Assembly (NCBI GenBank): GCA_013166775.1
Contig: JABLTJ010000024.1
Location: 1-53,427, forward strand
Length of the DNA: 53,427 bases
Reading direction: 5' to 3'
Source: Promethearchaeati archaeon
Lineage (GTDB): Archaea > Asgardarchaeota > Heimdallarchaeia > Heimdallarchaeales > Heimdallarchaeaceae
Numbering within the stretch: position 1 is the stretch's first letter; every line of letters begins with the position of its first letter. Shown here one piece after another: positions 18,605-34,291 of this stretch. The translations under genes were made by a program, and so were the position numbers. The notes under the pieces were generated by a model. The model had not been told where the DNA came from, did no database searches, and worked only from the letters and a program-made list of their open reading frames with translations.

Positions 18605-20584
18605 ATGAGAAGAAAGAAAATTGTCTGTGCAATTATAATAGTTGCATTATTTAGTACAAGTTTAATTCAAGCTCAATCGATAAATCAATCTGGTCCTTTC
18701 TTCACTCTCACTATACTAGTTACTTCAGGAAAAGCTTTTGATTATGGAGTGTATATTGTCAAGTATCTAAAGGACATAAATATTGATGCAAGAATTAAGG
18801 TTTGGAACTACGATTGTAATATTCCTAATTCCTACCCAAAAATCAATAAGGATTGGGATTTAGCTGTTTGTTCTTATAAAGGAGGAGGAAAATCTCCTGA
18901 TATGAGAGATTTATTTACTGAAAATGGATCTCAAAATATTTTCAATCTGAATTCAAAAATACCTTATCAGAATGAAAGTGAATATATGCAAAATAAAGCA
19001 GCATCAACTTTTGATCTTGATGAGAGACAGCAATTGTATTATGATTGGCAACAACTTGTAATGTCAAACATAGTACCAGTTTTACCACTATTTTCACCTA
19101 GATTATATACTTCTATATGGTCAAACACCGAAAGCTATGAGATGAGATGGGGATTAAGTGATAGTTCACCCTATATGAGTTTTAACGGTCTACATGAAGG
19201 GCAAGAGAATCTAAATGAATTTAATGTTGCATACAATGAGATAGAAAAACATGGTCCAAGCTCCATAGATAACCAATTTAATTTCTTGTTTTGGGAATTA
19301 ATCTCAGAACCGATAATTCAGTGGTCTCCCGATAATGCTCCACTAAAAACTGGTTTAATATTTGATTGGGAAGAGGTAGGTAATTCTCATCACAAATTCT
19401 ATATGCGAGATAATATTGTATGGAATCCGTCTTTTAATATCTCTGACAGAGATTCTACATCTGAACCCTTAGTTATAGAAACATCACCTGATGATTGGGA
19501 AGTCACCGATCCCGGTATCCTAATTTCAGGGCTAAAATCTGGACAAGTAAGCAATGGAATGAATCAGTTAGTAACGGCAAAAGATGCAGTTTTTACTCTT
19601 TTAGCAACTGCTCATCCATTAATATCTGAAAAAGCTGAAAACTATAAATGGTTAAAAGATTGTTATGTTGATCCTTCAGATCCATTTGCTTTCCATGTAT
19701 TTGTGGATGAAAATCCGGAAACTATATTAATTGAACCTATGGTTGATTTCTTTTCATATCTTGATTTAGGAATTTTACCTGAATTTTTCCTCAATTCTAC
19801 TGATGATACAGTTACATTAACCAGTGGAGGGATAGAATGTGTTGGATTGAATGAGACAATAAGGGATACAATGCAATGGAATAGTTATGAAATTAGTCCT
19901 TTTGGTTGTGGTAAGTTTATGCTGGACTATTTTAGTATTATACCTCAAACTGTTGTATCATGGAGCCCATTTTGGTTTGGAGTAGGTGCTATTGATGGAA
20001 CAACGGGTATGACACCATTTGTGGAAAAGGTTAACATTTATGATTATCCAGATGAAGAAGAAAGAATAGAGATTTTCAAAACTGGAAAATTGGATCTCAT
20101 TAGTGTTACTAGTTATCCACATGAAAGGAGAATTATGCAGCAGGATTATCGATTTGAGTTTCAAACAGAAATTCAGAACATTTTGAATTTGATAGCATTT
20201 AATTTAGAAAGTGAATCTATTGGTGGTTCTAGCAATTATGAGAGAATAATAGGAACAGATGGAGAGAATAGTACTGAAGCTTGTGCTGTTAGGAAAGCTA
20301 TCTGTTATGCAATAGACCGTGAAGAAATAAATCAGGTGTTTCATGATGGGGAATATACCTTGTGCCACAACCCAATGTATCTCTACACAGCTTACTATTA
20401 TTATGATGATGTTATCAAGTACTATCATGATCTTGATGCAGCTTGGGAGTGGATGGAAGCTGCAGGATACAAAGTAGATCTTACTAATATTTATCCATCA
20501 GTAATAATAGCTGTTTTTTGTTTAATTAGTATTTCAAAAATAGTTTACAAAAAGAAAATTAGAAAGGAAAAGAAGAAAAGCTAA
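18605..20584 (+). CDS. ABC transporter substrate-binding protein, family 5 (OppA/DppA-like), permuted, C-terminal membrane anchor
   Basis: VTAKDAVFT, PFGCGKFML, VRKAICYAIDREEI, AWEWMEAAGY, then TM helix and basic tail. Confidence 0.85.
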   Translation: MRRKKIVCAIIIVALFSTSLIQAQSINQSGPFFTLTILVTSGKAFDYGVYIVKYLKDINIDARIKVWNYDCNIPNSYPKINKDWDLAVCSYKGGGKSPDMRDLFTENGSQNIFNLNSKIPYQNESEYMQNKAASTFDLDERQQLYYDWQQLVMSNIVPVLPLFSPRLYTSIWSNTESYEMRWGLSDSSPYMSFNGLHEGQENLNEFNVAYNEIEKHGPSSIDNQFNFLFWELISEPIIQWSPDNAPLKTGLIFDWEEVGNSHHKFYMRDNIVWNPSFNISDRDSTSEPLVIETSPDDWEVTDPGILISGLKSGQVSNGMNQLVTAKDAVFTLLATAHPLISEKAENYKWLKDCYVDPSDPFAFHVFVDENPETILIEPMVDFFSYLDLGILPEFFLNSTDDTVTLTSGGIECVGLNETIRDTMQWNSYEISPFGCGKFMLDYFSIIPQTVVSWSPFWFGVGAIDGTTGMTPFVEKVNIYDYPDEEERIEIFKTGKLDLISVTSYPHERRIMQQDYRFEFQTEIQNILNLIAFNLESESIGGSSNYERIIGTDGENSTEACAVRKAICYAIDREEINQVFHDGEYTLCHNPMYLYTAYYYYDDVIKYYHDLDAAWEWMEAAGYKVDLTNIYPSVIIAVFCLISISKIVYKKKIRKEKKKS

Positions 20585-20697
20585 TAATTATATGGACCAG
20601 AAAGAAGAAGCTTCCTGGTTATAGCTTTATCTTTTTCCAATCTTATTTGTTTGAAAGTACTTAGTTTAGTATTCATTTTTTTGGTTTTAAACATCAT
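20581..20697 (-). CDS. Unannotated 38-aa micropeptide P1 (MMFKTKKMNTKLSTFKQIRLEKDKAITRKLLLSGPYNY)
   Basis: Hand translation; GAGGAG Shine-Dalgarno just upstream (about 20704-20709); follows 20728-20988; aligns ungapped with the family C-terminal motif. Confidence 0.72.
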   Translation of the reverse strand: MMFKTKKMNTKLSTFKQIRLEKDKAITRKLLLSGPYNY

Positions 20698-20727
20698 TCT
20701 TTTCTCCTCGCTTTTTTCTTTATTCTT

Positions 20728-20988
20728 TTATAATGAACCTCTGAACATTAGGAATTTTGCTACTGCTTGGTTCTTACTTGCTCTAACTTGTTCTTGGATT
20801 GTAGATCGATTGTATACTCTGTGTTCAGGTGATAAACCGCCTTCAGTAGCATCGGAAGTTACTATTTCAGCAACTTGATCAAATATTTTGTTCAAATCTT
20901 TTTTTAAGACACTCTCACATTCATAATTATCCAAAACATTATCAAATGCCTGAATGATTTTGATTTTCTGAATTGTACTTGCTACCAT
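20728..20988 (-). CDS. 86-aa helical protein A1 of the RGS(F)L-tail family
   Basis: Start revised to ATG 20988 (MVASTIQK), preceded by GGTGA; aligns over its full length with 29376-29639; ends FLMFRGSL. Confidence 0.8.
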   Translation of the reverse strand: MVASTIQKIKIIQAFDNVLDNYECESVLKKDLNKIFDQVAEIVTSDATEGGLSPEHRVYNRSTIQEQVRASKNQAVAKFLMFRGSL

Positions 20989-21054
20989 TTTTTTCACCAC
21001 TATTCTCATTTTTCTCTGAGTTACAACACATTTCTCTCTGTCATATATAAACAT

Positions 21055-21071
21055 TTCTCTGATTGCGAGAA
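21055..21071. promoter_or_regulatory. Operator-like palindrome TTCTC-N7-GAGAA
   Basis: TTCTCTGATTGCGAGAA next to the minus-strand TATA (TTTATATA, about 21044-21051) of A1. Confidence 0.65.
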
Positions 21072-21216
21072 AATCGATAATATTTAAGATTATCATGATT
21101 AGAGCACGATTTAGAGGATGCGTAGAATAGAGAAAAAAGGACTAATAACAGCAATTTTCCCCCACTAAGAGAAACATTAATAAGGGACGGAGAAAATATC
21201 TTTATGGATAAAATGT

Positions 21217-32687: not shown

Positions 32688-32704
32688 TTCTCACACAGTG
32701 AGAA
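32688..32704. promoter_or_regulatory. Operator-like palindrome TTCTCAC-ACA-GTGAGAA
   Basis: Perfect 7-bp arms upstream of R3. Confidence 0.7.
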
Positions 32705-32760
32705 TATAAGTTTAGAAAGACAGATAACTTTATAAACTTTTGTCAAAATTATAGTACAGA

Positions 32761-33465
32761 GTGTTTTATATGGGGAAACAAGAATTTCAAGATATTGTGA
32801 CTTTTGAACAAAAAGGTGTAGAAGTAATCAAAGACAAAAAATTGATAGATGTTTTTTATGATGAAGGTTATTCTCCTGTGCTTTGGGCATTAAGAGATCA
32901 ACCTTTAACTGTTAAAGAGATTTTAAAAAAGTATAACCAATACGTTGTACTTAATGTGGCAAAAATGGAGTTATCTGCAAAGGATAAAAAAGAAAAAACC
33001 GTAGCTACACAACGTTCTGAAAAAACTATCTACAGATACTTGAAAGATCTTGAAAATTTGGGATTAGTAGCTAAAGCAGGTCAAAGAGTAGTTATAGGCA
33101 AAACAGCAACAGAGAATCTCTTCTGTAGAACAGCAAGAATATTTTTGCTTGAAGATGTAAAAGTAGGTTGGTGGGAATGTGAAGAGAGTGAAGTTATTCT
33201 AGATAGAGTATCAAGAATCATAGGAATAGATAACAAAGGAAAACCACCTGAAGTAGAATGCTTATCCAAACTCATGAATAAAGTTGAAAAACTTGAATCC
33301 GGAGATGTTTTTAGATTACTTGATGAACATTACGAAGAAGTTTCAAAAATCATTCTTGAGGGTACTTTTAAAGAAAATAATATGTTACTTAAAGCTTTAC
33401 GGACTATAGCATTTTTGAAAAATGCAGATAAATACGTTGATGAGCTAAAAGATTGTATAGGGTAG
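32761..33465 (+). CDS. Winged-helix regulator R3
   Basis: RSEKTIYRYLKDLENLGLVAKAGQRV; close paralog of R2. Confidence 0.85.
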   Translation: MFYMGKQEFQDIVTFEQKGVEVIKDKKLIDVFYDEGYSPVLWALRDQPLTVKEILKKYNQYVVLNVAKMELSAKDKKEKTVATQRSEKTIYRYLKDLENLGLVAKAGQRVVIGKTATENLFCRTARIFLLEDVKVGWWECEESEVILDRVSRIIGIDNKGKPPEVECLSKLMNKVEKLESGDVFRLLDEHYEEVSKIILEGTFKENNMLLKALRTIAFLKNADKYVDELKDCIG

Positions 33466-33493
33466 ATTTATTTTCTTTTTTTCAAGGTTAATT

Positions 33494-33510
33494 TTCTCAC
33501 CAAATGAGAC
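33494..33510. promoter_or_regulatory. Operator-like palindrome TTCTCA-CCAAA-TGAGAC
   Basis: Same 17-bp geometry, upstream of R4. Confidence 0.6.
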
Positions 33511-33610
33511 ATACATCTTATTTTTGAATATATTTATCTCGCAAAATGTAAAGACTTTTAAATGATTTATAACACTTATTAATTAAGAAATTAATTAAAA
33601 TGTGAAATAA

Positions 33611-34291
33611 ATGCAATTTAGAGATATTATTACCGTTGAACAACAACCTGTTTTGATAATTGGAAACGAAGATACAATTGAATATAAAGATGTAAAAACT
33701 GGCGAAAAAAAATCGGTTTTTACATCTAATCTCCTCATCGATCCTCTTTACAGTCCGATTTTGACTGCATTAAAGAAAGGACCTTTAACAGTTAGAGAGT
33801 TAGAGATAGAATATAAGAAACTTGCCAATGAACCTAAATCAGATAAAACCCTTTATCGTTATTTGAAATTCTTAGAAAAAGCAGGTTTAGTCACTCCAGC
33901 AGGTCAAAGAGTAACTGTTGGTAAGACTGCTACTGAAGCTCTCTATGCAAGAACAGCGAAATTGTTCTTCTCTTCATTTGCAGCAAATGATCTCTGGGAA
34001 TGTTCATTCTGTAATACAGTTTTAGGAAAAGTTGCAGAAATTTTGAGTCTGAGAGAGGATATGCCTAAACAAGACACAGAATGTGTGAAGAACTTGATGA
34101 CTTCTGTAGATGGTTATATATTCAATGAATTATCGGATTTTTACAGCAAGCACTTTGAAGAAATAGCTGAAATTACTAAAGATAGCAACTCTTATGAGAT
34201 GAGTAGAATTACTGATGTTCTTGGAACAATTTTATTACTCAATCAGCCTAAATCTTTTGAAAAACCACTTGAAGAATGCTTAAAAGCTTAG
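33611..34291 (+). CDS. Winged-helix regulator R4
   Basis: ILTALKKGPLTVREL...KSDKTLYRYLKFLEKAGLVTPAGQRV. Confidence 0.85.
   Translation: MQFRDIITVEQQPVLIIGNEDTIEYKDVKTGEKKSVFTSNLLIDPLYSPILTALKKGPLTVRELEIEYKKLANEPKSDKTLYRYLKFLEKAGLVTPAGQRVTVGKTATEALYARTAKLFFSSFAANDLWECSFCNTVLGKVAEILSLREDMPKQDTECVKNLMTSVDGYIFNELSDFYSKHFEEIAEITKDSNSYEMSRITDVLGTILLLNQPKSFEKPLEECLKA

Follow-up and report, generated by a model that had tools for sequence, protein, structure and literature searches.

What do a few very small proteins do beside the transcription regulators whose genes they face, and which regulators control them? The question is raised by two loci of a Heimdallarchaeaceae contig (JABLTJ010000024.1 of assembly GCA_013166775.1), whose 53,427 nucleotides make up the window analyzed here; the window corresponds to contig C62 in a genome (G000) of 3.85 Mb that is 88.7% complete. 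An earlier note on this DNA had placed four regulator genes (R1–R4) and five small genes (A1–A3, P1, and P2) there, and its positions and orientations were correct for all nine open reading frames (ORFs; Table 1). We found that these genes are parts of a real and conserved two-operator circuit made from a known type of regulator, and that the small genes belong to a micropeptide family (30–90 residues) with a common C-terminal helix, which stands under two separate operators in one Asgard group. The circuit is undescribed in the literature searched, in which no characterized regulator-operator pair or small-protein family was found for Heimdallarchaeia. The wider comparison set comprised 61 related genomes, and 30 genomes formed the subset of the same taxonomic family.

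The R regulators and operator A

R1–R4 are PH1932-type (ArsR-like) winged-helix regulators, of which R2, R3, and R4 score above the Pfam HTH_5 gathering score and R1 scores below it (Table 1). Over its whole length (range 14–231), with both the winged helix and the C-terminal helical domain, the R3 model resembles PH1932 of Pyrococcus horikoshii (PDB 1ULY and 2CWE; Itou et al., 2008, Proteins 70:1631, as listed in PMC4486848), with a Z score of 13.6 (next match, 9.5), a root-mean-square deviation of 4.2 over 182 residues, and a Foldseek E of 1e-8. The identity is 19–21%, however, and the R proteins differ from PH1932 by an N-terminal strand pair and variable helical insertions in the helix-turn-helix (HTH), by a cysteine pair, by their many paralogs, and by their small partner genes. 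The window's genome has 11–13 R paralogs, and at least one was found in 53 of the 61 related genomes. Records with Heimdall-, Hermod-, Thor-, and Bathyarchaeia labels contain R homologs, the closest named record being a homolog from Ca. Heimdallarchaeota archaeon RS_9_76 (91% identity to R3).

Across the R set, the recognition helix is nearly invariant, and the C-terminal domain, which in the R3 model consists of five helices and about 97 residues, is variable apart from two cysteines (Cys164 and Cys229). These cysteines occur together in 75 of the 121 R proteins against a background of 0.9%, a count that is inflated by kinship, and the first is never present without the second. In comparison with the classical ArsR/SmtB metal site, they differ in sitting in the C-terminal domain; the metalloregulator model NF033788 was matched by 7 of the 121 members at E up to 0.01. 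The pair is plausibly a disulfide or metal site that serves as a sensor, and the C-terminal helical domain might conceivably sense a signal through it, by thiol state or metal.

The earlier note had also reported one 17-bp palindrome upstream of A1, A2, and all four regulator genes. This palindrome, TTCTCA-N5-TGAGAA (operator A), was located at five promoters, with A1 and R1 having one site in common. About 1.2 kb of intergenic DNA contains three sites with no more than one mismatch, compared to 0.009 per kb genome-wide. With a matrix derived from other genomes, no site in the genome scored higher than that of R3, and two sites were detected at another R paralog. Among 105 R genes from across the Asgard groups, 44 have operator A upstream, which would be the usual footprint of autoregulation. 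The site at A2 has the same position in orthologous promoters, orthologous A promoters possess two sites 44 bp apart that flank the TATA box, and the A1 ortholog faces the R1 ortholog at locus L192. Phylogenetic footprinting of this kind lends good support to the proposal that the R proteins control their own genes and the facing small genes via the palindrome, and operator A is probably read by the neighboring R repressors.

Given that operator A is palindromic, R would act as a dimer, and it is very probable from the footprints that R dimers bind operator A at their own and the facing-gene promoters. That bound R represses is reasonably likely, since operator A overlaps the BRE (the element that transcription factor B recognizes) beside the TATA box, and the transcription start is often covered by a second copy 44 bp further along. 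Here and for the second operator described below, the archaeal rule that a site lying upstream activates and a site over the start represses (PMC4158304) was taken as the model.

R homologs in Hermodarchaeota and Thorarchaeota have kept operator A and have no facing small gene, and the gene that some R genes of the window's genus face, in place of a small gene, is acetyltransferase-like or encodes a secreted protein. In the Hermodarchaeota-labelled loci L021–L045, R with operator A at its own promoter lies within a conserved block, flanked by a gene of about 550 amino acids (aa; by eye resembling a DNA methyltransferase) and, in convergent orientation, a secreted hydrolase-like gene. At locus L140 (303–1543; contig C102 of the window's genome, 4102–5342), an ArsR-like regulator other than R, 281 aa long, and an 83-aa gene weakly similar to the A family face each other, and the intergenic gap contains repeated TTCGAC/TCGAA elements, possibly a third operator.

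The small proteins and their C-terminal helix

A1–A3 are members of an unnamed family of three-helix proteins of about 87 aa; in the A3 model the helices span residues 4–22, 29–45, and 54–83 (predicted local distance difference test, pLDDT, 80). By profile search, the family is present in 24 of the 30 genomes of the taxonomic family, in two genera, and it has 28 short matches among 1.84 billion sequence representatives. That the small proteins belong to no named family was borne out by all searches made: Pfam gave no convincing match for the A family, Pfam and PADLOC named no family for A or P, the A3 model had no match in the PDB at E 0.001, and the Atlas searches returned only generic helical matches and no usable feature match. 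A1–A3 are net neutral and weakly hydrophobic.

The C-terminal motif that the earlier note had seen in all five small genes was recovered with a profile built from 53 family members of other genomes. These tails have one invariant glycine and, counted from it, hydrophobic residues at positions −3, −4, −8, −16, and −20 and E-R/K at −13/−12. Their conservation spans about 20 helical residues; the tail is an amphipathic helix with the invariant glycine at its end. When the profile was scored on 1,806 intergenic short ORFs, P2 and P1, which amount to the C-terminal helix alone, ranked 5th and 6th, just behind known members. Both lie 31–34 bp behind A genes and have a GGAG-type ribosome site, and P1 is probably co-transcribed behind A1. 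It could be argued that P1 and P2 are ORFs that have decayed or that arose by chance, with the A genes and the solo peptides alone being functional, given that no orthologs of either were found in the loci compared, that P2 is absent at the same position in orthologous loci, and that the genome-wide scores are weak. The ranks obtained with an independent profile, the strong ribosome sites, the spacing, and the selection on homologous solo peptides make this a poor prospect, and P1 and P2 are likely genuine genes.

The solo peptides (33–40 aa) are the C-terminal helix alone. They are under purifying selection, with a ratio of nonsynonymous to synonymous substitution rates (dN/dS) of 0.23 (p 5e-7 from 4 disjoint pairs). 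Within the class, a second family possesses operons of one to three peptides of 24–38 aa that face R, with operator A abutting the TATA box. These peptides scored weakly on the A tail profile, where the best subtype was equaled by 0–9 of 200 shuffles and the others were not above shuffles; homology between the two families is therefore no more than suggestive.

Two other roles of the tail were considered and rejected. Pup/UBact-type tags do not fit, because the tails end in G-S/T-hydrophobic and not in GG/TG plus E/Q, and no PF03136 match, which would mark a PafA-type ligase, was found in the 88.7%-complete genome. A proteasome HbYX role or cleavage at the glycine fits poorly, as the number of residues after the glycine varies from 0 to 3; the glycine would be explained more simply as a helix cap.

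Several further loci contain members of the family. At locus L137 (634–2217; contig C102), an M55 D-aminopeptidase gene is flanked by a near-identical pair of solo peptide genes, both with the second operator described below (operator B), and E2-like and JAB-like genes (by eye) are close by. Locus L138 (999–1194; contig C78) has, under operator B, a 40-aa peptide of a distinct subtype, whose tail is rich in aromatic residues around the glycine and which is conserved in several genomes. The solo 90-aa A genes (L117, L119, L120, L123, and L141) have a common promoter motif of their own. Just upstream of solo 86-aa A genes at L124–L127 is a conserved arginine-rich short ORF whose end is formed by a hydrophobic stretch and a terminal glycine, and unnamed genes of about 145 aa with CxxC recur in the surroundings.

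A second operator and its candidate regulator

The order of the small genes at the second locus, A3 behind P2 behind A2, was as the earlier note had described it; what had been overlooked is a separate promoter for A3, which carries an operator of another kind. The upstream regions of A-family genes split into classes, and A3-type genes and solo peptides carry this second site, a tandem CACAA-N-TTGTG (operator B). With an operator B matrix, four strong sites were found in the window's genome, all before small genes, namely A3, two solo peptides, and a 40-aa ORF that was a blind find and is conserved in relatives. The operator B pattern had 44 matches in 24 of the 61 genomes, and the reversed control had 0. 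The small gene starts 41–47 bp downstream of operator B in 29 of 30 loci; these genes are mostly solo peptides of 33–40 aa, far from any R.

The single exception among the 30 loci pointed to an operon in which a bactofilin-like gene is joined by the gene for an HTH_45 (Sso10a-like) regulator. Of the 26 genomes that had sufficient sequence, 25 have a single operator-B palindrome ahead of this operon, and 27 of the 30 genomes of the taxonomic family have just one copy of the regulator. Because the single-palindrome form marks the regulator's own operon, the HTH_45 regulator is a likely binder of operator B. Activation would be likelier than repression here, as operator B lies further upstream, ahead of the TATA box; from this activator-type position, there is a good chance that the HTH_45 regulator drives A3, the solo peptides, and its own bactofilin-like operon. 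In the window's genome this operon (locus L252, 3421–5100; contig C54, 65417–67103) has operator B in its promoter, includes a 400-aa bactofilin-like gene and the HTH_45 gene (contig C54, 65417–65728), is conserved across the family, and is followed by a GNAT gene. A perfect single operator-B palindrome also lies immediately upstream of the gene for an S9 prolyl oligopeptidase (locus L253, 2317–4465; contig C80, 12316–14464).

Operator B has the same TCAC-N5-GTGA core as the TGM motif of TrmBL1/Tgr, TATCAC-N5-GTGATA (PMC4158304). It differs from TGM in being tandem on peptide promoters, in being linked to an HTH_45/Sso10a-like gene rather than a TrmB gene, and in having targets that are not sugar genes.

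Possible partners of the peptides

The linkage of the small genes to R held for the greater part of the family only: 53 of 85 A-family matches have a listed R gene within 2.6 kb, in a head-to-head arrangement in nearly all cases, and 32 have no listed R gene within this distance. At 17 solo loci that were inspected, there was no R within 3 kb. Docking of the common helix on R, as proposed in the earlier note, is weakened by these solo members, many of which are under an operator tied to an unrelated regulator, by the R groups without peptides, and by the dissimilarity of A and R, since in a profile comparison the small proteins resembled no part of R (probability 0.28%, E 0.22). A complex prediction for an R3 dimer with A3 (score 0.02) was evidence neither way.

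Because R works without peptides in other groups and the peptides are unlike R, we favor, with a confidence just short of even, the reading that the peptides are the common intracellular output of two regulons, with a protein partner that is probably not R. Equally tentatively, the amphipathic helix with its glycine cap would be the working part of each product and would dock in a groove of a common cytoplasmic protein other than R. Several points weigh against this reading. The common partner is itself postulated, and a regulator other than HTH_45 could read operator B and also control the HTH_45 operon. Kinship among the genomes compared makes their counts non-independent, and R-linked copies served as the seed of the A profile, which bears on the R-linkage counts. 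Most family matches adjoin R and the second family of the class repeats the R-versus-peptide layout; a direct link between R and the peptides fits this persistent pairing equally well. It is a serious, though on the whole unlikely, alternative that the micropeptides are direct ligands of R, either as intracellular antirepressors or as exported signals, fed by the HTH_45 regulon together with its bactofilin-like cytoskeletal gene.

In the first form, the A proteins would be antirepressors or co-regulators of R, with mutual inhibition of R and A giving positive feedback and bistability and the operator-B copies adding a second signal. The model for it is Bacillus subtilis, where the SinR antagonists SinI and SlrA are under separate regulators, SinI adjoining SinR and SlrA being distant (PMC3917956). 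Here, too, a small gene adjoins a repressor and distant paralogous small genes stand under another regulator, some family members being under operator A and others under operator B; antagonism would follow by analogy. Also consistent with it are the head-to-head pairing that two families of the class have retained, the peptides carried by both groups with many R paralogs, and the helical C-terminal domain of modeled R, which could accept a helix. However, SinI-type antagonists mimic the oligomerization helices of their repressor, and the profiles of A and R do not match; the repressor fold differs from that of SinR; and many R proteins have no small partner, with some facing ordinary genes. 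We consider such antirepression doubtful, if clearly less so than the explanations that follow.

Among the Rgg/SHP and other RRNPP peptide receptors of Bacillota, the regulator is divergent from a short peptide gene with an operator at the peptide promoter. The adjacent divergent peptide genes described here, with the regulator site in between, resemble this layout, and the peptides could be exported without a signal peptide, cut down to their hydrophobic C-terminus, taken up again through family-5 peptide transporters, and then bound by R. The basic N-terminus and hydrophobic C-terminus of the peptides, two nearby family-5 solute-binding proteins (18605–20584 and 24207–26219, both +), and the operator-B-type site before the S9 peptidase gene would suit such a pathway. 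It is nevertheless quite improbable. Signal peptides are absent, as had been claimed for this locus, there being no hydrophobic N-terminal segment in A1–A3, P1, or P2; conservation extends over about 20 helical residues, beyond a short tail; no exporter is linked in the loci viewed; and the R sensor domain has only about 97 residues and matches PH1932, with many of the small products being folded proteins of 80–90 aa. A specific link of the peptides to family-5 binding proteins is unsupported, since with about 19 such genes in the genome nearness is unspecific.

Finally, the peptides might have no specific protein partner and act as cationic amphipathic helices on membranes or nucleic acids, in an antimicrobial, toxin-like, or protective stress role. 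The net charges of P1 (+8) and P2 (+7) and the operons of two or three peptides in the second family would fit such a role. We give it little credence, given that A1–A3 are not charged in this way, that the position-specific conservation (E-R, A, L, and G) suits a docking surface, and that PADLOC gave no defense-family match.

Features and neighboring genes

Besides the conserved module, the second locus contains two inserted ORFs between A2 and R2 that have no homologs in the loci compared; the 334-aa product is an acidic orphan, and the 69-aa ORF has one paralog on contig C103. A gene for a 107-aa cysteine-rich protein (34345–34668, +) lies directly behind the R cluster across the genus (69–94% identity), with a paralog near 5216–5470 (−). 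Pfam and NCBIfam searches with this protein were without match. It is usually followed by a gene for an FTR1 iron permease or an acyltransferase-domain gene.

Table 1. Genes and operators of the two loci (positions in the window)
Feature	Position	Strand	Description
P1	20581..20697	-	38-aa basic peptide; A-family C-terminal helix; rank 6, E 0.013; GAGGAG site
A1	20728..20988	-	86-aa three-helix small protein; E 1e-22; most likely start, revised from homologs, ATG 20988; longest ORF to 21096
Operator A	21055-21071	.	2 mismatches; abuts A1 TATA box; one site common to A1 and R1
R1	21226..21924	+	PH1932-type winged-helix regulator; HTH_5 13.4 bits; alternative GTG start 21217
A3	29376..29639	-	87-aa three-helix small protein; own promoter
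Operator B	29683..29712	-	Tandem CACAA-N-TTGTG directly upstream of A3 TATA box
P2	29766..29864	-	32-aa basic peptide behind A2; rank 5, E 0.0045; GGAGG site
A2	29898..30149	-	83-aa small protein; most likely start, revised from homologs, TTG 30149; longest ORF to 30218
Operator A	30185-30201	.	1 mismatch; downstream of A2 TATA box, over expected transcription start
Inserted ORFs	30385-31389 and 31501-31710	-	334 aa and 69 aa; outside conserved module
Operator A	31772-31788	.	2 mismatches; upstream of R2; second 2-mismatch site 31835-31851
R2	31871..32575	+	PH1932-type regulator; HTH_5 25.2 bits (cut-off 22)
Operator A	32688-32704	.	Perfect (0 mismatches); R3 promoter
R3	32770..33465	+	PH1932-type regulator; HTH_5 22.3 bits; model pLDDT 93.7; conserved Cys164 and Cys229
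Operator A	33494-33510	.	1 mismatch; upstream of R4
R4	33611..34291	+	PH1932-type regulator; HTH_5 25.7 bits

Implications

The individual parts of this circuit, a repressor, a palindrome, and a small gene, are ordinary. They include two candidate regulators with predicted operators, one of which is kept across Asgard groups, and a mostly unannotated peptide family under selection that two regulons have kept as their main target. If the peptides are ligands of R, transcription would be switched by peptides, possibly to govern cell shape or lifestyle, in the class of Asgard archaea that stands closest to eukaryotes. Once found, the partner of the peptides would reveal a peptide-based layer of control in close prokaryotic relatives of eukaryotes.

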